Positions 9,902 through 37,534 of a stretch of DNA of 64,000 nucleotides are shown piece by piece. Origin of the DNA: a virus. A program made the translations under genes and the position numbers. The DNA lies in the IMG/VR virus record IMGVR_UViG_3300020045_011333, positions 64,001 to 128,000 of that record; one strand, given 5' to 3'. The stretch's first letter is position 1; every line of letters starts with the position of its first letter. The notes under the pieces were generated by a model. The model ran no database searches. It saw only the letters and a list, made by a program, of their open reading frames with translations, and was not told where the DNA came from.

Positions 9902-10507
9902 ATGAAATCTTATTTACTTATTGACCGTTCCGGCTCCATGGCCAGTCGTTGGGCCGAAACTATTGGCGCTGTTAATGCATATGTCGAAGAACTAGCAAAA
10001 GATAAAGCTGGTAAGAAGGCTGATATTACTGTAGCTGTTTTTGATAGTGCCGCACCATTTGAACTTATTCGTGAAGATGTAAAAGTTTCTGAGTGGAAGC
10101 CTATTGCTCTTAATGAAGTTAGTCCACGCGGATCAACTCCTCTGTTTGACGCAGTGGGAACTTTAGTTCAAAAAGTTAAGGCCGCTTCTCCTAAGAAAGC
10201 TGCTGTGATTATTCTAACAGACGGTATGGAAAATTGTAGCAGAGAAATTAAAAAGGAAACTGCTAAAATTCTGCTTGACGAACTTCGTGCCAAGAATTAT
10301 GATGTTTCCTTCATCGGTGCCGACTTTGATGCATTTAGTCAGAGTAGTGGTTTAGGAAATGGTTATGGTAATACTATCATTATGAATGCTGGTAATTATG
10401 AAAAGGCATTTAGAGGTTTGGCTACTAAGTCTGCGAGTTATGCCGCAACTGGTTTAGTAGCTGAGTTTACGGATCAAGAGCGTAGTGCAGCCGTAGGTAA
10501 GAAGTAA
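9902..10507 (+). CDS. von Willebrand factor A domain protein
   Basis: LLIDRSGSM (MIDAS DxSxS), GSTPLFDAV, ILTDGMEN. The track start at 9821 lies inside tRNA-Ser, so ATG 9902 is used. Confidence 0.85.
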   Translation: MKSYLLIDRSGSMASRWAETIGAVNAYVEELAKDKAGKKADITVAVFDSAAPFELIREDVKVSEWKPIALNEVSPRGSTPLFDAVGTLVQKVKAASPKKAAVIILTDGMENCSREIKKETAKILLDELRAKNYDVSFIGADFDAFSQSSGLGNGYGNTIIMNAGNYEKAFRGLATKSASYAATGLVAEFTDQERSAAVGKK

Positions 10508-20962: not shown

Positions 20963-22807
20963 GTGGCTAACTTTGCAGACAGCAATCGTGCTGGCATTAA
21001 ACTTATTCAAGAGAATAACCTTACTTGGGGCGTAACACCTACCACAGGTAAAACACGCAATATTCGTATCACTTCTTCTTCCCTAGTTGCTGAAAAAGAG
21101 ACAGTTGTTTCTGATGAACTTCGTTCTGATCGTATGGTTAGTTCTGTTGTGGAAGTTTCGGCACAAACTACTGGTGATATTAACTACGAATTTAGTGCTG
21201 GTTCCCATGATATTCTCATGCAAGCCTTCCTTTTAGGACTTTGGACTCGTCCTATGGAATTTGATTATTTCAAGGGTAACGTCGCTTGGGGAACTACGAG
21301 CCGAATCGACCTTTCAGGTGGTGATTACAGAGACTACTTTACTGTTGGCCGTAGAATTAAAACTACAGGCTTTACAAATCCATCTAATAACAAATATAAT
21401 GAAATTGCCTCTATGGCATTTACGGGTGGTGTTACACAAATTACAGTGACCACAACTAATGCTGTAGTTGAAGCTGCTTCTGCCTTCACGAAAGTACAAG
21501 ATGCTAACGATGTTATTATTCTTAACAGTACTGCTATTCGTTTCGGAACTACTGGCGCTTCAACAATTGACTCAAATGGTACTAACGCCTTTGCCGCTGC
21601 CATCACTGCCGGTAATCTTGTTGCGGGCCAGAACATCTATGTAGACAATGGATCTGGCCGCGAAACTGGCTCTTACTCCTTTGCTACTAATGCTAGTGAT
21701 AATGATACTTTCACTATAAGTGATGGTATCAATTCTGTTATCTTTGAATTAGATGCAGGTACTGGCGTGATTCCAGGAAATCAAAGCGTAGCTCTGGGAG
21801 GAACCGGTACACTTACTGCTACTAATCTAGCTGCTGCTATTAATACGGCTCGTGTTGACGGGCGTCTTCAAGTTAAAGCTGTTGCCGCCACAACTACTGT
21901 TACTATTACTAATCTTCGTCGCGGCGGTGGATCACTTACTAAAGTTTCCGTAAACGGAACTGTAACAAACTTCACTGGCGGTATTGCAGGTTCTGGCGGC
22001 TTCTTCAAGATCGTTGCGGTAGCTGATGACGTGCTAACTGTATCACCTGCGCCAACAACTGATGCAAATGCTGGCGCTGCTGCTGTAACTATTAAAGGTT
22101 CAATGCTGCGCAATCCTGACGGAACGGGAACTCTACCACATCAGCAAATTGTGGCTCAAAGTTTTACGGCTGAAACTGGATTTGCTGACGTTAATCAGTA
22201 TTTCACTCACAATGGCTTACGTGTTGGTTCGTTCTCTATGGATGTTTCAACCGGCGCTATTGTTACCGGAACTTATGCTTTCGAAGGTAAAGAAACAAAG
22301 AGACTATTAACGGGTACTACTTTCTTAGGAGCAACTCCGTTTACGCCACTTAAAACTACTGCTACTGAAGTCATGAATTCTACAACGAATGTTGGATTAA
22401 TTGAAAAAGATGGTGTAGAACTAAGTTCTGCACTTCAATCAATTGCTCTTGAAGGTGATGCAACGCTTCGTCAACAACCAGCCGTAGGTTCTAAGTTCGC
22501 TCGTGGTATCGGTACTGGTCGTTTTAATCTAACTGGTACTGTTACAGCTTATTTTGAAAATGGCGCTCTTTACGATGACTTCATTACCCATGATACGGCC
22601 TCTCTAGCTTTTCGCTTTACTGATATTGATGGCAATACTTATAAGTATACTCTACCAGCGGTTAAGTTTACTAGTGATGCTATTGCACCTTCAGGCATTG
22701 ACCAAGATGTTGTTGAACCTCTTGAATTCACAGCGTTCCGCGATGGGACAACCGGCACTATGTTCCAGATCGATAGATGGAGCGACATTAAGAACGTCTC
22801 TGCTTAA
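20963..22807 (+). CDS. major tail tube protein with internal insertion
   Basis: TWGVTP...LVAEKETVVSDELRSDR...GDINYE; C-terminal GRFNLTGTVTAYFEN.ALY...YTLPAVKF; GGAG RBS, GTG start. Confidence 0.85.
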   Translation: MANFADSNRAGIKLIQENNLTWGVTPTTGKTRNIRITSSSLVAEKETVVSDELRSDRMVSSVVEVSAQTTGDINYEFSAGSHDILMQAFLLGLWTRPMEFDYFKGNVAWGTTSRIDLSGGDYRDYFTVGRRIKTTGFTNPSNNKYNEIASMAFTGGVTQITVTTTNAVVEAASAFTKVQDANDVIILNSTAIRFGTTGASTIDSNGTNAFAAAITAGNLVAGQNIYVDNGSGRETGSYSFATNASDNDTFTISDGINSVIFELDAGTGVIPGNQSVALGGTGTLTATNLAAAINTARVDGRLQVKAVAATTTVTITNLRRGGGSLTKVSVNGTVTNFTGGIAGSGGFFKIVAVADDVLTVSPAPTTDANAGAAAVTIKGSMLRNPDGTGTLPHQQIVAQSFTAETGFADVNQYFTHNGLRVGSFSMDVSTGAIVTGTYAFEGKETKRLLTGTTFLGATPFTPLKTTATEVMNSTTNVGLIEKDGVELSSALQSIALEGDATLRQQPAVGSKFARGIGTGRFNLTGTVTAYFENGALYDDFITHDTASLAFRFTDIDGNTYKYTLPAVKFTSDAIAPSGIDQDVVEPLEFTAFRDGTTGTMFQIDRWSDIKNVSA

Positions 22808-23729: not shown

Positions 23730-26700
23730 ATGGCTGATACATTTTCCTTGCGCTTCGAAATTGACGCCTCCCGCGCCGAAGCGGGAGCTAAGAAATTCGT
23801 ATCAGCCATCGCTTCTGTCAATAAATCTCTTGACGCTATGGATGCAAAGGCTAAAGCTGCTTTTGACAAACTCATGGCTGGTGGCTCTTCTGGAGGCGAT
23901 TTCACTAAGCTTGCTAAAGACCTTGGTAGATTAAATAGTGTAAATATAAATCCTGCTGCCGTCAAGAGTATTAATAGCATTGGAACAGCTTTCAAAAATC
24001 TGAAGGCCCCGAGCCAAGCCTCCATCAAAAACATCACATCATTTGCTAACACCATCCCCGGCCTGCTAAACAGTTTTAATGTTAGCGGGAACTTTGCTGA
24101 TTCTTTAAATAAGATTAGTTCGGCAATGGGAGGATTTAAAGTTCCTAGCCAAGGTAAAGTTGATGCTTTGAAAAGCTTTGGCACGGCGATTCAGCAAATT
24201 GCTCCTTCACTTCGCATCGCAGGAAATTTCGCAGGGATTGCTAAACTAGGAGAGGTCTTAGGAGGCTTTAAAGCCCCATCTGAGAAGGCTGTTAGTAATA
24301 TGAGAGCATTCTTCAATGCTCTGAACAACAGCGCTGCAAAGGCTTCTATAAGCGGAGGTTTGGTTAATGGTATTGTTAACCTAAGTGGTGCTATGGCTGG
24401 CATGAAATCACCTAGCGCTGGAAGTGTTAAAAACTTGAGAGATATGTTTGCTGCACTAGCTACGTTTAAGCCAGTAGGTGGAACAGGTTCTATTAGCCAA
24501 ATTACACAAGCCTTCGCTAATTTCAAAGGCCCAACTGCGGCACAAACAAAAAATCTTCGTGAATTCGTAACTATGCTAGGAACTTTAAAAGTTCCAGCTA
24601 ACGCGGCTCAGATTGCGCATTACCTTGAGTTGATAGGTGCTGCGGCCACTCGTGCCAATGCTTCGATGCATAATTTCCGAAATACTCTTGGCGGTTTAGG
24701 TGGAGCGGGTGGAGGATTTAATAGTTCTGCTGCTAGCATGACTACTAATCTTCGTGGCTTAGAAAACGCTTTTAGCGGAACGTTCCAAGCCGCATCTGTA
24801 TTTCGCACCATGATTGGTTCTATTACTTTAGGTACTTTATCTAAGTCTATTTATGATGCTAACACGGCTTTCCAAGCTTTTAAAAGTACAATGAGTGCTG
24901 CTACTGGTGGAGATATTCAAAAAACTGGCGAAGAGATGCGTTATACTGAAGATATGGCTAATAGGCTTGGTCAACGCATTCAGGACATTCAAGAATCTTA
25001 CGCTAGCTTCTCAATTTCAGCTAACCTAGCGGGTGTATCTCAAGATCAAACTAGAAAAATATTTGAAGCAACTGTAACTGCTATGACAGTACTACATCGT
25101 AGTTCTGATCGTACTAAGCTTGCTTTACTGGCTCTTGAACAGATGATGTCAAAAGGAACTATAAGTTCAGAAGAATTACGTAGACAGTTAGGTGAGCAAC
25201 TCCCAGGAAGTGTTAACTTAATGGCTCGCGCATTGGGTGTAGGTACTGATGAGCTTCAGAATATGCTTAAAGCTGGCTCTGTTCTATCTGCTGATGCTCT
25301 TCCTAAATTTGCGGAAGAAATACAAAGAACTTTCGGTGGTTCTTTAGAAGCTGCTCTGAATAACGCGGTTTCACAGTTTAATCTTCTTTATAACGCAGTT
25401 TATAGTCTTCAAATTGTGATGGGCCAAAGCGGAGCTATGCAAGCTTTAGCAGGAGCTTTTGAAAAAGTTAAGGATGCTATATCAGCACCAGAATTTGTAA
25501 CTTTCTCTTCACAATTTGGCGAACGTACAGCAAAAGTAATTACTGTTTTAGGCGATTCATTTGCTTACTTAGTTAAAAATATCGATACAGTTGTTTTTGC
25601 TTTAAAACTTCTATTAGCTTATAAAATAGGAGGATTTATTCAAGCTTTGTTAGGGGGTTTTGTAAGCTTAAGAGGAGCTTTAGTTGCTGGTGCGGCTGGT
25701 TTAACAGCGTTCAGAGCAGCATTAGCTGGAACCGTACCATTAGCTGTGGCTGCTAGAACTGCTATTGTAGGTTTATCCGCTGGCTCTATAGCTCTAACAG
25801 CTTTGAGTGGACCATTAGGTGCCGTGATATTTGGATTAGGTGTATTAGCAACTGCTTGGTTTACTTCGGGTGAAAAAGCAGAAGAATTTAATACAGTAGT
25901 AGATCAATCTAAAGCTTCTCTGGATAGGTATAAAGATTCTGTTGCAGAATATTCAACAATGCAAATTGTTAATGAACAGCAAAAAGTTAAACAAGCTATG
26001 TTGGATAGTCAACAAGTTGCTGCTAAAGCTGCTGCTGAAGTACAAAAATTGTCTGCTTCAAACGGTAGAGGTGCGGGTGGAGGATCTGAATTTACTGGTG
26101 TATTGAAACAATTTAGAGAAGTAGAAAAAGTTGTAAAAGCAACCGGTGGAAGCTACGCCGACTTTGCTAGACAATTAGCAGAAACACATTTTGCTACAGC
26201 CGAAGCCCAAAATTTTGCTAAGGCTATTATTGGTATGGCGGGCGCTCAAGACCAATCTTCAAGAACAACTGAATACGGAAATCAAAAATTACAAATATTG
26301 GATGGCACATTTAAAAGTATGAATTCTGCTAACGCCGTTACGCAAATGAATAATGTTGCTAGCGCTGCATCCGGCATGGCTGAAGCTGTAGTTTCTGCTG
26401 CAAATAAAGTTGTTGAAGCTAATGCAGCAATGAATCTCTCAAATGCGCAACAAACAATGTCTAAAGAATTTGTTGATATTTATAAACAAAATAAAGAAGC
26501 TTTAGCTAGCATTGATTCTTCGGAAAATAGTATTTCTGATAAATTAATGCTTCGTACAGACCAGAATTTAGCTTATAAAAAATCTTACGATGCAATAACT
26601 GCTTATGCAAATGAATTAGCAGGCATTCATAAAAAAATGGAAGGCCAAAAAGGCGCTCAAGAAATTATTGAAAAAATGGGTGACGCGGCGAGCGCTGCTC

Positions 26701-28010
26701 AACAAAAAATTGCTGATGCAAGAAAAGAATTAGAAAAGTTTAATAAAAATTCTGAGGGAATGGACCCCAATAGAAGAGCAAACGCGCAGGCTCAACTACA
26801 AGAAAAAATTAAAGAAGCCGAAGAAGCCGCTAAACCAAAAGTAACTACAGGCGGCGGCGGCGGCGTAACTAAAAACTATGATTCTGACACTAAAGCTTTA
26901 ATCCTTTATAAAAAAGAAGTAGGTGATTTAGATAAAAGATTGAAAAATCATACTATTACTTTAGATGCTTATAATCTAGAAATGGAAAAAATTAAAACGA
27001 AATATGCCGGGACTTCAGTTGCGGCAGAAGGCCTTGTTGCGAGTTATGAAAAACTTAATGCTGAATTAATGCCAATGTCTACAGCTTCTGATGAATTTGC
27101 TAAAAAATTACAGATTCTAAATGATGCTAAAGAGGCTGGTATTGTAAAAGGTGATCAGTACACAGAAATGTTATTGCGTCTTCGTAAAGCATATTCTGAT
27201 TCTGGATCAGGTGGTTCTGGAAATTCATGGATTGATGGTATCAACAAGGGCTTAACTGATCTTACCAAAACTTCTGATGACTTCGTTAATGATGTTGCTG
27301 GTGCTGTGACTAATGCTTTCAACGGTCTTGAGGATGCGTTAACAGAATGGGTTACGACCGGGAAAATGGACTTTAAAAGCTTAGCTTCTAGTATTCTAAG
27401 TGATGTAGCAAGAATTGTTATCCGTTACACTATTATTCAACCTATCATCCAAGCTCTTTCAAGTATAATGGGAAGTATGGGCCTTGGGGGAAGCATTGGG
27501 GGAAGTGCTGGTGGAATATCAGGGGGAGCTTCATCGGGTGTTAATATATTTAGCGCTAAAGGAAATGCATTTAATTCAGGAAAATTAGTACCTTTTGCTA
27601 AAGGGGGCTTGACAAACGGTGGAAACAGTGGTATAGTAAATGCTCCAACTTTATTTGAAATGTCAGGAAGTAAAACTGGCATGATGGGAGAAGCGGGACC
27701 AGAAGGCATTTTACCTCTTAAAAGAAATTCTAAAGGTGAATTGGGTGTCTCTGCTAGTGGTTCGGTTCAAGCCGCTTCTTCTAATGTTTTAGTTCAACCA
27801 AAAGTTAATGTTAGCGTCATCAATAATGGCGGCAATAGTGAAGCTACGGTTCAATCTAAGCAGAATTCAGACGGTTCACTTGATATCAACGTAATCCTAG
27901 ACCAAATGAAAGCGGCTGTTGCCGGTGACATTTCCAAAGGCGGTACTGGTTTAAACAAAGCTTTTGAAAGCCGTTACGGAGCTAATCCCGCCGTAGGTAA
28001 TAAGAGATAA
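23730..28010 (+). CDS. tape measure protein
   Basis: 1426 aa, helical and Ala/Gly-rich; tape-measure core (ALEQMMSKG.ISSEELRRQLGEQLPG); lambda-type C-terminus (AFNGLEDAL.EWV.TGK.DFKSLA; GEAGPEGILPL). Confidence 0.95.
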   Translation: MADTFSLRFEIDASRAEAGAKKFVSAIASVNKSLDAMDAKAKAAFDKLMAGGSSGGDFTKLAKDLGRLNSVNINPAAVKSINSIGTAFKNLKAPSQASIKNITSFANTIPGLLNSFNVSGNFADSLNKISSAMGGFKVPSQGKVDALKSFGTAIQQIAPSLRIAGNFAGIAKLGEVLGGFKAPSEKAVSNMRAFFNALNNSAAKASISGGLVNGIVNLSGAMAGMKSPSAGSVKNLRDMFAALATFKPVGGTGSISQITQAFANFKGPTAAQTKNLREFVTMLGTLKVPANAAQIAHYLELIGAAATRANASMHNFRNTLGGLGGAGGGFNSSAASMTTNLRGLENAFSGTFQAASVFRTMIGSITLGTLSKSIYDANTAFQAFKSTMSAATGGDIQKTGEEMRYTEDMANRLGQRIQDIQESYASFSISANLAGVSQDQTRKIFEATVTAMTVLHRSSDRTKLALLALEQMMSKGTISSEELRRQLGEQLPGSVNLMARALGVGTDELQNMLKAGSVLSADALPKFAEEIQRTFGGSLEAALNNAVSQFNLLYNAVYSLQIVMGQSGAMQALAGAFEKVKDAISAPEFVTFSSQFGERTAKVITVLGDSFAYLVKNIDTVVFALKLLLAYKIGGFIQALLGGFVSLRGALVAGAAGLTAFRAALAGTVPLAVAARTAIVGLSAGSIALTALSGPLGAVIFGLGVLATAWFTSGEKAEEFNTVVDQSKASLDRYKDSVAEYSTMQIVNEQQKVKQAMLDSQQVAAKAAAEVQKLSASNGRGAGGGSEFTGVLKQFREVEKVVKATGGSYADFARQLAETHFATAEAQNFAKAIIGMAGAQDQSSRTTEYGNQKLQILDGTFKSMNSANAVTQMNNVASAASGMAEAVVSAANKVVEANAAMNLSNAQQTMSKEFVDIYKQNKEALASIDSSENSISDKLMLRTDQNLAYKKSYDAITAYANELAGIHKKMEGQKGAQEIIEKMGDAASAAQQKIADARKELEKFNKNSEGMDPNRRANAQAQLQEKIKEAEEAAKPKVTTGGGGGVTKNYDSDTKALILYKKEVGDLDKRLKNHTITLDAYNLEMEKIKTKYAGTSVAAEGLVASYEKLNAELMPMSTASDEFAKKLQILNDAKEAGIVKGDQYTEMLLRLRKAYSDSGSGGSGNSWIDGINKGLTDLTKTSDDFVNDVAGAVTNAFNGLEDALTEWVTTGKMDFKSLASSILSDVARIVIRYTIIQPIIQALSSIMGSMGLGGSIGGSAGGISGGASSGVNIFSAKGNAFNSGKLVPFAKGGLTNGGNSGIVNAPTLFEMSGSKTGMMGEAGPEGILPLKRNSKGELGVSASGSVQAASSNVLVQPKVNVSVINNGGNSEATVQSKQNSDGSLDINVILDQMKAAVAGDISKGGTGLNKAFESRYGANPAVGNKR

Positions 28011-28013
28011 TAA

Positions 28014-28499
28014 ATGGCAGAAATTTGGCCCGAAGCATTAAATTACGTTCTGGATCGCGGTAGTTTTTCTATCGAGGAACAGGACGTGGCTCGCTCTGAT
28101 TTTGATGATGGACCAGCTTTAGTCAGAACTAGATTTACTAATACTACGACTATGTATAATGGAACAATTACTTTAACTGATTCTGAATTCAATTTGTTTA
28201 GAGGATTCTACAAAAATGCCCTAGCTTCAGGATCAAGATGGTTTTCCATTCCGCTTTGGGAAGGTACTGATTATTCAGTTCATAAAGTTAGATTTAAAGA
28301 ACCTTATCAGATTAGGGACGAAGGTTGGAATCAGTATACCTTAGGAATTAAATTAGAGGTAAGGGATTACGCCACATATTCAATTTTTGCCTCTTATTTA
28401 ATTGGATTATACGGAGTAGATTTTGTTATAAATGAAATGGCTGATCCGCTTCAAATTATTATAAACATTGATTATCCACAAGTAATGATGAATTATTAA
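28014..28499 (+). CDS. distal tail protein
   Basis: Follows the TMP; RSDFDDGPALVRTRF...F.GFY...L..GSRWF. Confidence 0.7.
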   Translation: MAEIWPEALNYVLDRGSFSIEEQDVARSDFDDGPALVRTRFTNTTTMYNGTITLTDSEFNLFRGFYKNALASGSRWFSIPLWEGTDYSVHKVRFKEPYQIRDEGWNQYTLGIKLEVRDYATYSIFASYLIGLYGVDFVINEMADPLQIIINIDYPQVMMNY

Positions 28500-29077
28500 T
28501 GACAACATCTGATGATATTTGGGGTCAAGCGATTCAAGAAGCTTATGCTAGCGCCCCCCTAGAAGAAGTAATATTATATACATTAGAACTACGTCACCCC
28601 TCATTTGTGAATGAAGATGACGTAGTGCAACCTATTAGGTTAGTCCGAGATTATGGGGAACTTTTAGAAGAAGGTGAGCCTGATATTTACGGCTGGAATC
28701 TAACTTTAGAGAACGAAGCTCCGCTAAATGGAGGAGAGCTTGTTAAATTTGTCTCTATGATGTTTGACTTTGAACTTCCGGCCCAACAAGAGGGATCGCT
28801 CCCAAGTATTGAAATTAAAATTGATAATATCACTAGAGAAGTCTCTAAATATTTAGATGATTCAGTGGAATTAAATTCTCCAATTGAATTAACATATAGA
28901 GAATTTTTGATGACCGAACCTAATGAACCACAATTTGTTCTTAATGGAATGACGATTCAATCAGTTAAATCAAACATAACTAGCGTTACAGCTACTGCTA
29001 GTTTTGCCGATTTTGTTAATAGAAATTTTCCATCGAAACTTTATCGCCCCCAAGACTTCAGAGGCTTGATTAAATAA
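28499..29077 (+). CDS. tail tip hub protein (DUF1833/gpL-like)
   Basis: EAYASAP...LYTLELRHP...IRLVRD...F.FELP...I.IDNI. Confidence 0.8.
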   Translation: MTTSDDIWGQAIQEAYASAPLEEVILYTLELRHPSFVNEDDVVQPIRLVRDYGELLEEGEPDIYGWNLTLENEAPLNGGELVKFVSMMFDFELPAQQEGSLPSIEIKIDNITREVSKYLDDSVELNSPIELTYREFLMTEPNEPQFVLNGMTIQSVKSNITSVTATASFADFVNRNFPSKLYRPQDFRGLIK

Positions 29078-29490
29078 TGATTGACATTGTTGAGGTAGTA
29101 GAGAACGTTCTTGGTGTTAGGTATGAGTCTGGGTCAATGGGACCGAAGACTTTTGATTGTTGGGGATTAGTTAGATATATTCAGAGAGAAGGTTTTGGTC
29201 GCGATCTTCAAAGCATTGTTCCTCCTTCGGAAAATGTAAGAGAATTAATTAAATTTATAAGAGCGCATCCTGAACACAAGAACTGGAAAAAGTCGGATGT
29301 CCCGGTGCATGGTGGTTTAGTTGAAATGTCAAATTCAACACATCCGCATCACATCGGCGTTTATTTGGATATTGATGGGGGTGGGATAGTCCATTGCTCC
29401 GTAGCTGGCGTAACTTTTGATCCTGTGATTGCTTTGACGTGTTCCGGTTGGAGAAGTTTAATATACTACGAGTACGTTAAGAATGATTGA
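29077..29490 (+). CDS. NlpC/P60 tail assembly protein (gpK-like)
   Basis: GP..FDCWGLV...HIGVYL...GG.VHC. Confidence 0.85.
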   Translation: MIDIVEVVENVLGVRYESGSMGPKTFDCWGLVRYIQREGFGRDLQSIVPPSENVRELIKFIRAHPEHKNWKKSDVPVHGGLVEMSNSTHPHHIGVYLDIDGGGIVHCSVAGVTFDPVIALTCSGWRSLIYYEYVKND

Positions 29491-32400
29491 ATATAATTCC
29501 CTAATTGGCAATTTTAAAAAAATAGACTACCATTGCGGTGAAACTTATTACGAAGTTGCTGATAGATTAGGTGCGCCTTATAATTCCCAACCAATTGTAT
29601 GTATAAGAAATGGTGAACCGGTCCTAAGAAAAGATTGGGACAAGCCGCTAGGAATGGCTAAAGATCAAATAAGCTTTGTTCAAATTCCTCGCGGCGGGGG
29701 CAGCGGAATGTTGAAAAATATTCTTAGAACTATCGCGTTGATTGCGCTCGCTGTAGCCGTCCCTTATTTAGGGATACCAGCAATGCTAGGCGTTGGAGCA
29801 GGCATTGGAGCTAACTTAATTAATGCCGGTATTATCTTAGCTGGTACATTTCTTATAAATGCTTTCATGACACCTAAAGCACCAGCTTTATCAAATAATA
29901 CTTCTTTGGAAGCTAGTCCCACTTACAGTTTAGGTGCCTCAGGCAATCAAGCGCGTCTATTAAACCCCATCCCAAGGCTTTATGGCACTCATATTTTATA
30001 TCCAGATTTTGCTTCACAACCTTATCAAAGTTATGAGAATAACGAACAATACCTATATCAGTTATTCTGTTTAGGGGTAGGCGAATATGACCTTAAATCT
30101 ATTAGTATTGCCGAAACAGAATTATGGAATAGTACGTCTGGCATAAGTGGATCATTTAACGATGTGGAGTTAGAAATAATTCCTCCCGGTAATAGTGTTA
30201 CTTTGTTTCCTTCTAATGTCATAAGTTCGGCTGAAGTTTCTGGACAAGAACTTCGCAATGAACCTGCCCTTGTGTCTGTAACTATTTCGGGTAATAGAGT
30301 GACTTTCACTGAGAGTCTATTCAAGGTCGAGTACTTGGCTCCCGGCGATAAAATGCTGATTGTATATCCAGACAACACTCCTATTGGTGTGTTTACTATA
30401 ACAGACTTAGATGTTGTAGGAAAAATGTGGATTGAATTTAATACCATATTTCCAACTCAGTCAACTCCTGTAGTAAGAGGTTTTATTCTTGATGGATGGG
30501 TAGGCCCATTCGTAGCCAATCCAAGTAATAGAGCTACGAATCAATTAAAAATTGATGTGGTACTTCCTCGTGGTTTATTTTATGCTAACGACGAAGGAGG
30601 ATATAACAACGACTCTTTGAGTTATATAGTGCAAATTAGGCCTATAAATAATTTAGGTGTGCCACTTAGTGATTACGTTACTGTGTTAACAGAAACAATT
30701 ACTCTAGCCACGCCCACACCTCAAAGATTCACAAAAACTATTGACGTTTCACTAGGACGTTATGAAGTTAGAATGCAAAGAACTGACGGTAAGGAACACG
30801 ATTCTAGATATGGTAATGATCTTAATTGGCAGTCCCTAAGAGCCTTCATCCCCGATGATAATACATATGAAGATGTAACTCTTCTAGCTATGAAAATTAG
30901 AGCCTCAAATCAGCTTAGCAGTCAAAGCTCTACTCAAGTTAATACAGTACAGACCGCTAAAATTCCGGTTTGGAATGGCTCTACTTGGTCAGGCCCTCAA
31001 GCGACTGCAAGTCCTGCTTGGGCGGCTGCGGATGTATTAAGAAATACTGTATATGGCGCTGGTATGGCTGATGAGAGTATTGATCTAGCCAAGCTATTAG
31101 ATTTAGATGCTACTTATACAGCTAGAGGAGACAAGTTTAACGGTGTATTTGATACTACGCAAACTCTTTGGGAAGCTTTAAGCTCTGTATTAGCTTCGGT
31201 AAGAACGCAACCTATATTAGTTGCTGGTGTAGTTACGTTTGTCAGGGATCAGCCTAGATCACTGGCTAGAACTGTTATTACTCCTCAATCTATTCTTAAA
31301 AATTCATTCGAAACAACTCATATTCAAAAAGGCGCTGATAGTGCTGATGATGTTATTGTAGAATTTTTAGATGAAAATACATGGGAAGAGACAGAAGTTC
31401 AGTGTACTCTACCGGGATCAACTTCCTCACAACCAGCTAGAATTAAGATTTTTGGTGTAACCAATATATCTCAAGCTTGGCGCGAAGGTATGTATTATGC
31501 AGCTTCCAATTCATACAGACGAGTTTTAGCTACTGTTTCTACTGAATGTGACGGCAGATTACTTTTAAAAGGTGATCCGGTTATTGTTAGCCATGATATG
31601 CTGCAATGGTCACAAAGTGGGTATGTCATGGACTATCTCTCATTAGAAAAATCTTTGATTGTGGATCGGCCAGTAATTTTTGATGATACTAATCAAAACT
31701 ATATCTCTCTGAGAAGAAAAGATGGGAAAGAATTTGGTCCTATCGAGGTGTCTTCGAACGGGTATGAGAACGAGATAGTTTTAGATTCTGCTTCACTCAA
31801 TGCTGCGGAAATATCTCTGGGACTGACTTTAGCTGAAGTATTATCTATTGATGATGAAGCTAAACGTACAACATTTATCATGTATGATAGTGAAAGGTAC
31901 AAGAAGAAATTTCTTGTCGTAGGCTCCACTATGAGAGACATGAATAAAGTTGACCTTTCTTTAGCTATTGATGATCCAAGAGTTTATAGTGCAGATACTG
32001 GCATTCCTCCTGAAGGTGTTTCTTATCTAGGGCCGGGAGTTATTCCTGATGGGCCAAGTATGGGAGCTGTTTCTGTTTACCAATCACCATCTAGTCTTGC
32101 TGATCCAGTAACTCTTATAGTTTCTTGGGCCGCTGCTACAGGTGCAACAAGATACGTATCACAGTACTCCTATGATAATATTTCATGGGTTCCAGCTTAT
32201 AATGGAATTGATACTAGTTATGTACTAGTTGTCAACTCTGGTGAGGTATATATTAGAACAGCCGCCATTGGCTCAGTATTAGGGCCTTGGTCCTATATTA
32301 ATCCTATGCCACAGAATTTTGGAACGCCTTCCTTACTGCCCGGAACGGTTTCTGATCTTAATGTTGAGGCAAGTGTTACAACTGGTACTCTCGAAATTTC

Positions 32401-33001
32401 TTATAACGTAGCGGCTCGTGCCTCATCATACGAAGTTAGGGTTTATACAGAATCGGTAGTCGGTAGTGGTACATTTGACACATTAGAATTAACTAAGAAT
32501 ACAAGCGGTAACTTTGTGTCATTTGTTTCTTCAGAAGTAATTGCCGCTGGTGGCGCGTGGTCACGTATTCAAGTTAATGTATATTCTATAAATGTCAATG
32601 GCTATAGTACACCCGCTATACAACAAGTTCTTGATATTTCGTTGGATGCAATCACAGGACTAGCACTAACAAATCCATACGGAGGCGTTGAAGCATCGAT
32701 CCAATGGAATATAGTTTCGGGAGCCAATTCTTATAGAGTGAAAATTTATAACAACGTAAGCATTCTGGTTAGAGAAATTTCTGTATCCACCAATTCTTAT
32801 TATTATAGTAATGATCAATTAACGAGTGATGGCGGACCTTGGGGAGCATTTAGTGTGAAAGTAAATGCAGAAGCCTCAGCATTAATTGGACCTCAATCAA
32901 CACTTAATATTGTTAATCCAGCATATCCTACATTATATACACCAACTAGTACTACATTTGGGTTCCCTTCGGAACCTACAAGAGCAACAATGACTGTTTA
33001 A
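29483..33001 (+). CDS. central tail tip/host-specificity protein (gpI+gpJ-like)
   Basis: NQARLLNPIPRLYG...YPDFA; GRYEVRMQR; SPAWAAADVL; FNGVFD; C-terminal FN3-like repeats. Confidence 0.88.
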   Translation: MIEYNSLIGNFKKIDYHCGETYYEVADRLGAPYNSQPIVCIRNGEPVLRKDWDKPLGMAKDQISFVQIPRGGGSGMLKNILRTIALIALAVAVPYLGIPAMLGVGAGIGANLINAGIILAGTFLINAFMTPKAPALSNNTSLEASPTYSLGASGNQARLLNPIPRLYGTHILYPDFASQPYQSYENNEQYLYQLFCLGVGEYDLKSISIAETELWNSTSGISGSFNDVELEIIPPGNSVTLFPSNVISSAEVSGQELRNEPALVSVTISGNRVTFTESLFKVEYLAPGDKMLIVYPDNTPIGVFTITDLDVVGKMWIEFNTIFPTQSTPVVRGFILDGWVGPFVANPSNRATNQLKIDVVLPRGLFYANDEGGYNNDSLSYIVQIRPINNLGVPLSDYVTVLTETITLATPTPQRFTKTIDVSLGRYEVRMQRTDGKEHDSRYGNDLNWQSLRAFIPDDNTYEDVTLLAMKIRASNQLSSQSSTQVNTVQTAKIPVWNGSTWSGPQATASPAWAAADVLRNTVYGAGMADESIDLAKLLDLDATYTARGDKFNGVFDTTQTLWEALSSVLASVRTQPILVAGVVTFVRDQPRSLARTVITPQSILKNSFETTHIQKGADSADDVIVEFLDENTWEETEVQCTLPGSTSSQPARIKIFGVTNISQAWREGMYYAASNSYRRVLATVSTECDGRLLLKGDPVIVSHDMLQWSQSGYVMDYLSLEKSLIVDRPVIFDDTNQNYISLRRKDGKEFGPIEVSSNGYENEIVLDSASLNAAEISLGLTLAEVLSIDDEAKRTTFIMYDSERYKKKFLVVGSTMRDMNKVDLSLAIDDPRVYSADTGIPPEGVSYLGPGVIPDGPSMGAVSVYQSPSSLADPVTLIVSWAAATGATRYVSQYSYDNISWVPAYNGIDTSYVLVVNSGEVYIRTAAIGSVLGPWSYINPMPQNFGTPSLLPGTVSDLNVEASVTTGTLEISYNVAARASSYEVRVYTESVVGSGTFDTLELTKNTSGNFVSFVSSEVIAAGGAWSRIQVNVYSINVNGYSTPAIQQVLDISLDAITGLALTNPYGGVEASIQWNIVSGANSYRVKIYNNVSILVREISVSTNSYYYSNDQLTSDGGPWGAFSVKVNAEASALIGPQSTLNIVNPAYPTLYTPTSTTFGFPSEPTRATMTV

Positions 33002-33024
33002 TACATTAATATAGCGAGCTAAAA

Positions 33025-34191
33025 ATGGTGAATAAATTTTATCAAGGTAAAGTAAACAAGATTTCTGATAGTGATTTTAGAAGAATTGCTAAACAGTATG
33101 ATATCCCAGAAAGCCGCTTAAGAGCGGTAGTGGAAGTTGAAGCTCGTGGTTCAGGCTACTATGGAGCTACAGACTTGCTAACCGCCTTGTATGAACCACA
33201 TGTGGCTTATGCTCATAGTTCTGGCGAAGCCCGTAAAGCTCTTGTTTCTGCTGGTCTTGCCTATCCTAAGTGGAAGCGCGACTATCCAAAAACCAGTTAT
33301 GACAGAATTGATAAGGCTGCTAAAATAGCTGGTGAAGAAGTTGCTGCTTTAGCAACCTCGTGGGGCATGGGCCAGATCATGGGATTTAATCATGATGCTG
33401 TAGGATTTTCTACTGCACTTGAGATGGTTAAAAATTTTGCTGTTTCTGAAGCTAATCAAGTAGAAGGGATGTTGAAATTTATAACATCCAAGAAACTTCT
33501 TACCAAGTTAAAGAATGGTGATTGGAAAGGTTTTGCCTATGGTTATAATGGCGCTGGTTATGCTGAAAATAGTTACGACATTAAGCTAGCCGCCGCTGAC
33601 AAGAAATGGGCTGTAAAACTTAATAATAAAGATGTTCCTAATCAAACTGAACTACCTACTGTTCCTTCTATTACAAAAGGAGCTAAAGGCGAGGTTGTAA
33701 AATCTCTACAGCAAGGGCTTAAAGATTTAGGTTTTGATGTTACTGTTGATGGCGATTTTGGTGGACACACTGAAGAAATTGTTAAGCAATTTCAAGAACA
33801 AAACGGTTTAACTGTAGATGGTCAAGCCGGACCCGCCACGAGATTAAAGATTTCTGAAGCCTTAACGGCAAAATCTAAGGACGTAGCTAAAGCTAAAAAG
33901 ATCCCCGTTGCTTTCGTAACTAAACCAGAAGCTAAAGTTCTATTAGGAGAAACCGCTCAAGAACCTATTCTTGTTGAGCAAGAAGAGCTTGAGAAACCTG
34001 TGGGACGTACACGTCAATTTTGGTATTGGTTATCAACTCTTCCTCTTACAGGGGCGGCATCTTGGTTCCAAGACTGGCGCGTTCTTCTAGGAATTTTTGT
34101 AGCTATTGTTGTGTTAGCTATCTTTGGTATTTTGGCTCAAAATAAACTTATAACTACTTATAAGAATATTAAGAAAGCTTTAGAGGAATGA
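33025..34191 (+). CDS. endolysin: DUF3380 N-acetylmuramidase + peptidoglycan-binding domain + C-terminal TM
   Basis: AVVEVEARG...LYEPH...TSWGMGQIMGFN...FAYGYNG; V.SLQ.GL..LGF...VDGDFG..TE..VK.FQ. Confidence 0.9.
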   Translation: MVNKFYQGKVNKISDSDFRRIAKQYDIPESRLRAVVEVEARGSGYYGATDLLTALYEPHVAYAHSSGEARKALVSAGLAYPKWKRDYPKTSYDRIDKAAKIAGEEVAALATSWGMGQIMGFNHDAVGFSTALEMVKNFAVSEANQVEGMLKFITSKKLLTKLKNGDWKGFAYGYNGAGYAENSYDIKLAAADKKWAVKLNNKDVPNQTELPTVPSITKGAKGEVVKSLQQGLKDLGFDVTVDGDFGGHTEEIVKQFQEQNGLTVDGQAGPATRLKISEALTAKSKDVAKAKKIPVAFVTKPEAKVLLGETAQEPILVEQEELEKPVGRTRQFWYWLSTLPLTGAASWFQDWRVLLGIFVAIVVLAIFGILAQNKLITTYKNIKKALEE

Positions 34192-34192
34192 T

Positions 34193-34534
34193 ATGCTTGA
34201 CAAATTATTAATTTATGCTATGATAGGCATTTTAGTAGCTGGCGGTGCTGTCACTACTGTAATGTATACTAAGATTCAAACACAGAAAACAGCTATTCTC
34301 GAATTAACTATCGAACGTGATAATTTTAAAGCAGCTTATCAAGTTAAAGATTTAGAATTTAATAACTCTAAAGCAAGTCAAAACACTTTAAATGACTTAT
34401 ATATCAAAGAAAAAGAAGCTGCTGGACGAATGGCAGACGAATTAGAGGTAATTAGAAATGTCCCTGAAACCAATAATGGCCCTGTTGCTCCTGTCCTTAG
34501 TAATACCCTTGACAGGCTGCGGGACGATAATTAA
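34193..34534 (+). CDS. i-spanin (Rz-like)
   Basis: N-terminal TM followed by coiled coil; follows the endolysin. Confidence 0.75.
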   Translation: MLDKLLIYAMIGILVAGGAVTTVMYTKIQTQKTAILELTIERDNFKAAYQVKDLEFNNSKASQNTLNDLYIKEKEAAGRMADELEVIRNVPETNNGPVAPVLSNTLDRLRDDN

Positions 34535-34763
34535 ATACGAACCACTTATTTATACAGTCGAAGTTCCTGAAGCATTACGTACTTGTGCTTCTCTACCTCC
34601 TCGACCTAGCGGAACTTATACTCAAAGAGAAGTTTCTTTATTTATAGTAAGACTTGATAATGCTAGAAAAGATTGTAAAATTAAACTTGAAGAGCTAGTG
34701 AAATTAATAGACGTACAAAACCAAAACGCCCTTGAACTTAAAAACGAACGGACAAAGAAATAA
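34458..34763 (+). CDS. o-spanin lipoprotein (Rz1-like)
   Basis: LLLLSLVIPLTGC lipobox; Pro-rich; overlaps the i-spanin 3' end. Confidence 0.8.
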   Translation: MSLKPIMALLLLSLVIPLTGCGTIIKYEPLIYTVEVPEALRTCASLPPRPSGTYTQREVSLFIVRLDNARKDCKIKLEELVKLIDVQNQNALELKNERTKK

Positions 34764-35278
34764 TGTATATCTCCCGACAAAAAGATGAAATTACTATTGA
34801 GATTACGGCTGAAGAATTTAATATTATTGGCCCCACTAATGTAATGAATATTTTAAAGTTAAACGATCCTGCACCTAACCTAGCTTCAGGGACTACTAGA
34901 TCACCGTATTCAGCTAGAGATATCTTAGTAGGTGGTGGAAGTTCTATTACAGGTGATTTTTATAATAAAGATGAAGCTTCCCTAAAAGAGGGTGATTCAT
35001 TTATTCTTAATGGAAAAGAGGCTGTGGTGGGGCATGTTGGTCCCGAAGCTATTTTACCTTCTAAGAAGACGGTAAATGTAATTATAGAAAATAAAGAAAA
35101 TTCAGTTGATATTGATTGCCATCAAACAAGAAATTCCGATGGCTCTTTAGACATAAATATAATTTTAGAACAAATTAAAAAGGCTGTTGCTGACGATATT
35201 TCCAAAGGCGGTACTGGTTTAAATAAAGCTTTTAATAATCGTTATGGCTCTAATCCTCCAAGCCCAATAAAAAGATAA
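34763..35278 (+). CDS. protein whose C-terminal half is paralogous to the tape measure C-terminus
   Basis: GPEAILP...NSDGSLDINIILEQIKKAVADDISKGGTGLNKAFNNRYGSNP vs TMP GPEGILP...NSDGSLDINVILDQMKAAVAGDISKGGTGLNKAFESRYGANP. Confidence 0.85.
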   Translation: MYISRQKDEITIEITAEEFNIIGPTNVMNILKLNDPAPNLASGTTRSPYSARDILVGGGSSITGDFYNKDEASLKEGDSFILNGKEAVVGHVGPEAILPSKKTVNVIIENKENSVDIDCHQTRNSDGSLDINIILEQIKKAVADDISKGGTGLNKAFNNRYGSNPPSPIKR

Positions 35279-35292
35279 TAGGTTAATTTAAT

Positions 35293-37236
35293 ATGGCAAT
35301 TGTAGTACAAGACACGGGACAAGGTTTAATAAGGACTACTGTAGGCACAACTTTGTCTTGGAGTCACACTGTAAGTTCAGGTAGTGATAGAATTTTATGT
35401 GTTTCTATATTAATTAGTACTTCAGTCCCGAATCAAGTTGTTACAACTGTTTTGACATATGGTGGAGTTTATTTAACTAAAGTGGCAGAAATGATTAACA
35501 CAGGTTCCAGAATGGAATTTTGGCAGTTAATTAATCCCACTGTTGGTACAGCCACCCTTAGTTTATCAACGTCGAATAATTTTCTTAATATCTCTTCTCA
35601 TTCTTTTACATTAGTTAATGTGGCGCAACAAATACCTGAATTTGTGTCAAAAGCTACCAATGCTACCGGAACAACATCCACTCAAGGGATTACGACAACT
35701 ACAAATGCAGCGCTGACCATTGGTACTTTTGGTACTAATATTAATGCGACCCACACTGCAACAGAAGCTGGACAAAGTATTATTGCTACGTCAGCTACAA
35801 GTACATCAAAACAACACTCGGTTTCAACGCATTTTGGACCTACTCCGGGAGGCTTAGTTACAGATGGCTGGTCAAATTCTGTTAACTATACCCAAGCTGG
35901 ACAAATGCTTATTGTGTATCATGATGTTGCAAATGCCGGTGATACTTTATCTGGTGATATTCAAAAAAATATGGTGGGACAACGTACCCCCATCATTACG
36001 GGAACTAGTGGACCTGTAACTTGGAGCGCCTTGTTTACTGGACAAACGCCTGCATCAGTGGAAGCCAGAGTTAAAAATTCTTCTGGCACTACTATTGTAG
36101 ATTGGACGCCCACTACTTTAACTATTACTGGCAATTCACTTAAAATGAAGTTAAATTCTATTCCAGTAGGTAATACTTATACCGTAGATATACGGAGTAA
36201 AACATCTGGAGGAAGTGTTATTGCTACTAAAATAGGTTCTAATACTTTTGGTATTGGTAAAATTATTGCGGTTTATGGATCATCTGTTTCCGATTCTGCT
36301 TTTATTGACACTCCATACGATGCTAGCTCCTTACTTGTAAGCGTTTACCGACAAACAGGAACTTCTTGGACCATTGCTTCTGGTACTGGTATTGTAGCAT
36401 TAGGTAACGCAGAAATATTGAGTGAACCGGGTGTCCCCATTGCCTTTTTGAGGTGCGGTGTTGCTGGCATCGAAGCTGTCAATTTAGCGGCAAAGGTAAC
36501 GGCAACAGGATATCCAAATCTTCTTACCGCTATTGCAGCGGTGGGAGGTCTTAGAGAAGCTGATATAATCTCGATAGGTGCGCAAGATGCTCGGCTGAGT
36601 CACGTACCTTCTGTAGCTTCTCACTTAGCTAATTTACGACTTATTCGTTCTAATTTAGTGACTGATACAACGCAAACTAATGTACCATTATTTGTAATGG
36701 CTATGCAACGTGCGCCAGATGCTAGTGCTTTTGATCAAGGGTTTACATACGCCAGAGGTGCTGAGCTTCAATTCGGGGACGATTCTAATGTGACTATTGG
36801 TGCCACTACGATAGATTTAACTGTTGCGCCAGATAATGCAAACATTCTTATTGCCGATAGTAAAATAGCGTGGAAAAGACTTCAACTTAGAATGGCTAAA
36901 GTTCTACGAGGAGCTGTAATAGATTCTCAAGGGCCTAAACCTATTAGTGCTAACTACGATACTATTACAGGATTTTTAAAAATTACTTTTGATAGGAGAA
37001 ATGGTGATAGCTTAGTAGGCAAAACTTCTCAAACTGGAATTACAGGGTTTAGAGTTAGTAATGATAACTTTGCAACACTTTTAACAATAACCGAAGCTTT
37101 TGTTAGTAGTGTTAATACGGTTTCACTGAATATAGGTCCGGGAATATCTGGAACGATAGTATGGGATTATTTGGAAGGAGCTACACCAAATATAACAAAT
37201 TGTGTTGGAAATAATGCGATAGGCCCTACACCATAA
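35293..37236 (+). CDS. putative virion protein: beta-sandwich N-terminus + SGNH/carbohydrate-esterase-like domain
   Basis: GIGKIIAVYGSS, PIAFLRCGVAG and ISIGAQDA align with the SGNH blocks; Thr/Ser-rich Ig-like flanks. Confidence 0.55.
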   Translation: MAIVVQDTGQGLIRTTVGTTLSWSHTVSSGSDRILCVSILISTSVPNQVVTTVLTYGGVYLTKVAEMINTGSRMEFWQLINPTVGTATLSLSTSNNFLNISSHSFTLVNVAQQIPEFVSKATNATGTTSTQGITTTTNAALTIGTFGTNINATHTATEAGQSIIATSATSTSKQHSVSTHFGPTPGGLVTDGWSNSVNYTQAGQMLIVYHDVANAGDTLSGDIQKNMVGQRTPIITGTSGPVTWSALFTGQTPASVEARVKNSSGTTIVDWTPTTLTITGNSLKMKLNSIPVGNTYTVDIRSKTSGGSVIATKIGSNTFGIGKIIAVYGSSVSDSAFIDTPYDASSLLVSVYRQTGTSWTIASGTGIVALGNAEILSEPGVPIAFLRCGVAGIEAVNLAAKVTATGYPNLLTAIAAVGGLREADIISIGAQDARLSHVPSVASHLANLRLIRSNLVTDTTQTNVPLFVMAMQRAPDASAFDQGFTYARGAELQFGDDSNVTIGATTIDLTVAPDNANILIADSKIAWKRLQLRMAKVLRGAVIDSQGPKPISANYDTITGFLKITFDRRNGDSLVGKTSQTGITGFRVSNDNFATLLTITEAFVSSVNTVSLNIGPGISGTIVWDYLEGATPNITNCVGNNAIGPTP

Positions 37237-37270
37237 AGAAAACCCGCCTTTCGGCGGGTTCTTTTTATTT
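37235..37270. terminator. bidirectional intrinsic terminator between convergent arms
   Basis: AAAGAA-AACCCGCC-tttc-GGCGGGTT-CTTTTT; A-run on one side, T-run on the other. Confidence 0.9.
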
Positions 37271-37534
37271 ATTACCTACTAGGTCTGCTACATAGGCCTT
37301 AAAATCGTCATAGCCGCCCACCAGCTTACCATTCTTGAAAATGCGAGGGAAGGTTCGATGCCCCTCCCTCACAAACGCCTGACGTTCCTCATCAGTTACA
37401 ACCTTCTTAATTGAAACTGGAACGCCAAGGATATTGAAAAGCGTGACGGTTTTATCACAATATGAGCAACCATCTTTCCCAATCATGAAGTAGTTATTGC
37501 CGAATTTATCTTCATCGAATAGATCATCTGACAT
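37265..37534 (-). CDS. glutaredoxin
   Basis: KDGCSYC...RTFPRIF.NGKLVGGYDD; likely start MSDD (track start 37561). Confidence 0.9.
   Translation of the reverse strand: MSDDLFDEDKFGNNYFMIGKDGCSYCDKTVTLFNILGVPVSIKKVVTDEERQAFVREGHRTFPRIFKNGKLVGGYDDFKAYVADLVGNK

Follow-up and report, generated by a model that had tools for sequence, protein, structure and literature searches.

The DNA analysed here is a window of 64,000 nucleotides, positions 64001-128000 of a 184,940-bp IMG/VR virus record which carries direct terminal repeats, is estimated to be complete and has a G+C content of 36.5%; coordinates below are those of the window unless another locus is named. In the late operon, read on the + strand, a tail tube gene (20963-22807; 614 aa) is followed by the gene for a tape measure protein of 1426 aa with the Pfam domains TMP_3 and Tape_meas_lam_C (23730-28010), and then by a block of lambda-type tail-tip genes (28014-33001), the presumed seat of the tape-measure end. 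This block codes for a 161-aa protein of no recognised family in the position of gpM, a DUF1833 L-like protein of 192 aa, an NlpC/P60 K-like protein of 137 aa and a J-like protein of 1172 aa. A lysis cassette (33025-34763) comes next, formed by a muramidase gene (388 aa, with the peptidoglycan-binding domain PG_binding_1 and a hydrophobic C-terminal segment), an i-spanin gene directly next to it (113 aa) and an overlapping o-spanin gene (34458-34763; 101 aa); Pfam and PHROG searches and examination of the reading frames revealed no recognisable holin in the cassette. The related phages described below have the same lysis arrangement, with an enzyme of 358 aa. Behind the cassette lie an open frame of 171 codons, hereafter ORF171, and an unannotated ORF of 647 aa, after which a bidirectional terminator hairpin (37241-37260) closes the operon, with convergent nucleotide-metabolism genes beyond it.

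ORF171 (34763-35278, + strand) is an intact frame encoded about 6.7 kb downstream of the tape measure, behind the lysis cassette and not among the tail-tip genes. Its first codon and the o-spanin stop overlap (TAATG), which suggests translational coupling of the two genes, and the same junction is found in relatives. The predicted product is acidic, with a pI of 5.2, and its highest mean Kyte-Doolittle value over 19 residues is 0.8; sequence analysis detected no membrane segment, signal peptide or lipobox. Searches against Pfam and PHROG (E thresholds of 0.1 and 0.01, respectively) gave no match, whether to tape-measure domains, to lysis families or to any other entry. A previous reading of the same DNA, made from the letters only and referred to below as the sequence-only reading, had taken ORF171 for a stand-alone, soluble protein carrying the tape-measure end, and the intact frame, the acidic pI and the absence of a hydrophobic segment all agree with that description.

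The same reading had also called ORF171 a duplicate of the tape-measure C-terminus. This description holds for residues 80-171 (35000-35275, + strand), but not for the first ~34 residues, which form the signature of a separate small-protein family. With BLASTP, residues 80-171 align to residues 1309-1426 of the tape measure (27654-28007, + strand), the source or the partner of the ORF171 copy, with 51 identities in 118 positions, one gap of 25 residues and an E value of 3e-24; matches of this part of ORF171 in phmmer searches are likewise tape-measure C-termini. The similarity is concentrated in a GPE..ILP motif (ORF171 residues 89-99; 35027-35059), which was rightly reported as retained, and in the last 48 residues, 36 of which are identical, in line with the near match of about 50 residues noted earlier. 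Within these residues a core of 42 codons (35132-35257) reaches 34 identities. Around GPE..ILP, hhalign aligned 19 columns of ORF171 and the tape measure (E 1.7e-4).

At the nucleotide level, the reported identity of positions 35198-35223 with 27930-27955 proved exact to the base. This run of 26 nt is the sole match of at least 16 nt between ORF171 and the rest of the 184,940-bp genome, and a whole-genome search with ORF171 recovered, besides ORF171, the tape-measure end alone. Taken together, the BLASTP match, the exact run and the genome-wide search confirm the likeness of the two genes far beyond chance. The N-terminal half of ORF171 differs, as had been noted, and neither BLASTP nor hhalign found a counterpart for it in the tape measure. 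A candidate homology of residues 36-83 to a glycine-rich region of the tape measure was not supported by hhalign. The C-terminal hallmarks of a tape measure (the GPE..ILP motif, a strand and a terminal helix with RYG) are all present in ORF171. In length (171 aa) and in gene position behind the lysis cassette it departs from a tape measure proper, a long helical ruler with several hundred residues up to some thousands, whose gene stands between those of the chaperone and the tip.

Exhaustive searches revealed homologues of ORF171, 78-119 aa in length, in at least four other lineages of related phages with genomes of ~130-185 kb. A phmmer search against 1.84 billion representatives gave 22 matches. 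Three of the matching proteins, P0007 (119 aa), P0019 (83 aa) and P0020 (78 aa), also have the N-terminus of ORF171, and a fourth family member, P0023 (88 aa), was added by a profile search. Every match outside the family is a tape-measure C-terminus, mostly from long tape measures and in some cases from 3' ends cut by contig starts. P0005 and P0013, which at first sight are stand-alone short proteins, are really such truncated 3' ends. P0016 (241 aa) was also rejected as a family member, being a fusion of portal and tape measure: its N-terminus resembles, by eye only, that of lambda-family portal proteins and the remainder matches the tape-measure C-terminal region. It probably arose either by deletion in a decaying prophage or as a chimera during assembly. 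The loci of the homologues comprise contigs of 128.9 kb and 180.8 kb, several shorter contigs and the IMG/VR loci L030-L034.

All family members share an N-terminal module of ~34 aa and a tape-measure-type end of ~35 residues, which runs as far as the RYG signature, and the two are joined by a middle part of ~10 to ~95 residues; the strand before the helix is kept in ORF171 and P0007, and the GPE..ILP motif, among the small proteins, in ORF171 only. The 42-codon core, which encodes the C-terminal helix pair and the RYG signature, is common to all family members and all tape measures. The N-terminal module of ORF171 (residues 1-34; 34763-34864) is conserved in five lineages, and a profile of this module alone retrieves nothing but family members. 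An alignment by MAFFT hinted that the module might be a diverged GPE region, an idea rejected by hhalign: with a probability of 0.1%, the module is unrelated to the tape measure. The linker of ORF171 (residues 35-79; 34865-34999) is unique to this phage, predicted to be disordered and absent from all homologues. The sequence-only reading had noticed neither the conserved family signature in the N-terminal part nor the restriction of the long tape-measure-like stretch to this phage.

AlphaFold2 models of ORF171 and P0023 follow the same pattern, a predicted beta-hairpin with two short helices, a flexible linker and two further helices. Their mean pLDDT values are 60 and 61, respectively, and confidence is low outside the two modules; in ORF171 the N-terminal module scores 82-88, the C-terminal helices (131-147 and 151-161) ~75 and residues 42-71 below 50. 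All members of the family are mildly acidic and without a membrane segment. In a fold search of the ORF171 model against 48,161 PDB representatives no structure reached Z 3, and a search of the ESM Atlas returned only unnamed viral clusters and tape-measure look-alikes. The full-length form of ORF171 gave no match by tblastn against INPHARED, by a word-seeded near-length search of a set of 5.8 billion proteins or by a pattern scan of IMG/VR. Likewise, megablast of the region 33000-37300 against phages gave no match, the endolysin as a query found only distant phages without this synteny, a metagenome scan with the family alignment yielded no confirmed locus, and a full-text literature search retrieved no description of a free-standing tape-measure-end protein of this kind. 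ORF171 is neither a tape measure nor a gpI, but a paralogue of the tape-measure tip helix that is encoded on its own and joined to a private module.

Homologues occupy the same position in at least four other lineages and are under purifying selection, so the absence or decay in relatives that had been named earlier as an argument against a function is contradicted. Comparison of ORF171 with the resident tape measure across the core of 42 codons shows differences at 18 of 28.3 synonymous and 11 of 97.7 non-synonymous sites (pS 0.635, pN 0.113). Free drift of ORF171 would be expected to bring about half of the synonymous divergence to its non-synonymous sites, which is not observed, and this argues against it. 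Among orthologues of the small gene, pS ranges from 0.4 to 0.8 and pN from 0.18 to 0.33 in both modules. Such saturation at synonymous sites combined with low pN points to a family which is old and under constraint; the orthologues of the tape measure are equally saturated (pS 0.6-0.8). Divergence is much stronger (pN 0.55) in the strand region (ORF171 residues 103-123), which lies after the GPE motif and before the helix; this fits the loss of the region in the shorter homologues.

These values bear on the possibility that ORF171 is a functionless remnant, left by a recombination event that dragged the 3' end of the tape measure gene behind the lysis genes. The divergence of residues 103-123, the unique linker, predicted to be disordered, and the failure to find a homologue of the full-length form are what such a remnant might show. 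The frame is intact, however, the helix core keeps a pN of 0.11 at near-saturated pS, and the homologues in at least four other lineages have pN/pS well below 1. We therefore consider a remnant highly improbable, the selection and conservation seen in the sequences having already largely refuted it.

The history of the C-terminal part was addressed with a maximum-likelihood tree built on ~42 C-terminal residues from five small proteins and as many tape measures. In this tree of only 42 columns, ORF171 groups with the tape measure of its own phage (ultrafast bootstrap 95, SH-aLRT 92) and the other four small proteins stand apart; on the same 42 columns, a common clade of the five small proteins is rejected by the AU test (p 0.0095). 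Identity counts agree, since the helix block of ORF171 has 21-24 of 31 positions identical to tape measures and 14-19 of 31 identical to the other small proteins. Tree, AU test and counts, with the shortness of the 42-column alignment in mind, thus indicate that ORF171 is a chimera. Judged from these comparisons, its N-terminal module is orthologous to that of the family and its 3' part comes, by replacement or renewed copying, from the tape-measure lineage of the same phage, an event which brought a longer tape-measure stretch into ORF171 than its relatives have. A later exchange is probable as well: inside the 26-nt run the tape-measure orthologues differ at several synonymous positions and the two copies in this genome are identical, which points to a short gene-conversion patch. 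The 22 codons immediately before this run (35132-35197 against 27864-27929) differ at 13 of 14.3 synonymous sites, with 18 of 22 residues the same. Synonymous divergence beside an identical patch might reflect selection against recombination between the copies, conceivable because a deletion joining the two would cost the phage its tip and lysis genes, or it might be due to chance.

The gene order around the small gene is also maintained. Relatives have a tape measure of 1422-1427 aa, a gene of 160-161 aa, the DUF1833, NlpC/P60 and J-like genes, an endolysin, two spanins and the small gene, with convergent glutaredoxin and ribonucleotide reductase genes beyond. In all five lineages the small gene starts at, or adjoins, the o-spanin stop codon; the loci that show this are the window, L024, L025, L027, L034 and one further contig. 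It is the final gene of the late operon in the relatives, and the window phage alone has the 647-aa gene added downstream. In L024 the same terminator hairpin (10368-10389) lies directly 3' of the small gene. This hairpin is G+C-rich and nearly the same in the window phage and L024 although the coding sequence is saturated at synonymous sites, and in both phages it closes the convergent late and nucleotide-metabolism operons.

An invariant site right after the o-spanin gene, with overlapping stop and start codons in all five lineages and next to a cassette without a visible holin, could be taken to mean that the small protein regulates lysis by the membrane-tailed muramidase and the spanins. 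The product's lack of a membrane segment, signal peptide or lipobox counts against this; moreover, a function in lysis leaves both the conserved tape-measure helix and its tracking of the resident tape measure unexplained, and the place at the end of the operon may reflect nothing but co-transcription. We regard a lysis-linked function as very unlikely, and turn to the tail tip, the place where the tape-measure end acts.

Tape-measure C-terminal helices embedded in the tail tip occur in T5 (pb2C), T1, 80alpha and chi as well as in the two phages considered below. The sequence-only reading started from the premise that the tape-measure C-terminus sits in the tip, which agrees with the solved tails of lambda and Sf11. 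In lambda, residues 818-849 at the extreme C-terminus are the only ordered part of gpH (PMC10721106, PMC12617516), and residues 818-842/849 form a three-helix coiled coil in the hub lumen, standing on a tripod made of gpI residues 135-223 (PMC10721106). Each lambda tail contains six tape measures, of which the tip seats only three ends, and what the cleaved end does is an open question (PMC12617516). Of Sf11 gp18, only residues 749-780 are ordered, and they lie embedded in the tip (PMC12724387). Among solved structures, the Sf11 hub protein gp14 is the closest to the J-like protein of the window phage, with an E value of 3e-20. Close cultured relatives of this phage are absent; identity of its J-like protein to proteins from Achromobacter and Janthinobacterium siphophages does not exceed 35%.

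The ~35 C-terminal residues common to the small-protein family correspond to the stretch that is ordered inside the hub in the solved tails. Pairwise similarity between the ORF171-type helix and the lambda gpH end is not significant, and the equivalence rests on position and family membership. ORF171 differs from the tip-embedded helix of gpH or gp18 in being a separate 171-aa product, with an N-terminal module of its own, without a Pfam tape-measure domain and encoded behind the lysis genes. The comparison with lambda gpI is of another kind. PF06805 (Lambda_tail_I) has no match in the complete 184,940-bp genome at E values up to 1, the K-like and J-like genes overlap with no gpI gene between them, and the K-like protein (137 aa) has an NlpC/P60 domain only. 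Like gpI, the small protein is a separate small product which would be expected to meet the tape-measure end in the hub lumen, and the two may be functional analogues. Unlike gpI, the small proteins lack a hydrophobic segment and are encoded at another position; hhalign gives the pair a probability of 0.06%, and the C-terminal part of ORF171 is derived from the tape measure whereas gpI is not.

We tentatively propose, at a little less than even likelihood, that the small protein is a component of the virion tail tip which acts through its tape-measure-derived helix. Action at the tip is the most economical reading of a family that keeps exactly the tip element and has had this element refreshed from the resident tape measure in one lineage. 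ORF171 would be a late, soluble, two-module protein, the helix module of which would act at the tail tip, either by pairing with the C-termini of the tape measure or by occupying the same seat in the J/L/M-type hub. It could in this way serve as a lumen component, a plug or an adaptor, with the N-terminal module giving a second contact. As the clade has no recognisable gpI, the small protein may supply part of the role that gpI plays in lambda as partner of the tape-measure end and plug. The sequences show the homology, the existence of the family, the fixed gene position, purifying selection and the re-copying from the resident tape measure, whereas the binding site, the presence in the virion and any plug role of ORF171 are inferred. 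The gene position behind the lysis cassette, the lack of significant pairwise similarity between the helix and gpH and the absence of similarity to gpI and of its hydrophobic segment count against a tip component, as do the low confidence of the models outside the two modules and the small size of the 42-column tree.

A more specific version supposes that three copies of the small protein pair their helices with tape-measure C-termini as a mixed plug bundle in these gpI-less tails, gene conversion keeping the helices matched. We hold this arrangement to be unlikely; if true, it would represent a new way to build a tail plug and an enforced co-evolution of a virion protein and its own fragment.

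Homology, conservation and the match to the resident tape measure would be the same for a factor that acts only during assembly and is not part of the virion. Such a factor would transiently fill the seat in the hub, or would cap tape-measure C-termini while these are free in the cytoplasm, and, as a placeholder, chaperone or stoichiometry control, would govern the timing and the number of tape measures engaging the tip, leaving before the tube polymerises. The chaperones described for tape measures, of the G/GT type, speak against it insofar as they are encoded just upstream of the tape measure gene and bind its body, not its end. The small proteins are nevertheless soluble and acidic, and a flexible linker of ~10 to 95 residues suits a binder more than a tightly packed structural part. 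Spare ends also exist in lambda, where six tape measures are made and three are seated (PMC12617516). On balance an assembly-only factor appears somewhat unlikely, and the tip component proposed above is the reading we retain.

A mimic of the docking helix could in principle also compete for hubs, and ORF171 might then be a weapon, a free tape-measure end that blocks the hubs of related co-infecting phages or satellites and poisons their tails. Its gene, however, lies at the end of the late operon of structural and lysis genes, in coupling with that of the spanin, so the protein would be made together with the tails of its own phage. Moreover, the tape measure that ORF171 resembles most is that of its own phage rather than a foreign one, and conversion keeps the two matched, so its own phage would be struck first; PADLOC returned nothing relevant for ORF171. 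An interference function therefore seems improbable to us.

Current work on siphophages asks how the tail tip seats, holds and releases the end of the tape measure. A separately encoded tape-measure end, conserved in a clade and matched to the resident tape measure, offers a handle on this seating problem. The family marks the minimal element under selection, about 35 residues, and its small proteins are ready-made competitors or partners for binding experiments. From them one may also learn what stands in for gpI where a tail has none. In addition, a great many small late phage genes are unannotated, and the family gives a name to one group of them.

Two neighbouring genes deserve mention in their own right. 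The product of the tail tube gene is unusually long, and since Phage_tube_2 covers only its residues 302-591, its large N-terminal extension belongs to no assigned family. The 647-aa ORF (35293-37236, + strand) was seen in this phage alone, where its insertion separates the small gene from the conserved terminator of the operon. It has no match in Pfam or PHROG, and a search with the 647-aa product recovered nothing. In the ESM Atlas model, residues ~213-647 resemble the SASA / sialate O-acetylesterase fold (TM 0.57 by query, 0.76 by target), and from this modelled fold the protein may be a tail-borne polysaccharide esterase. The gain of this ORF coincides with the long form of the small protein.
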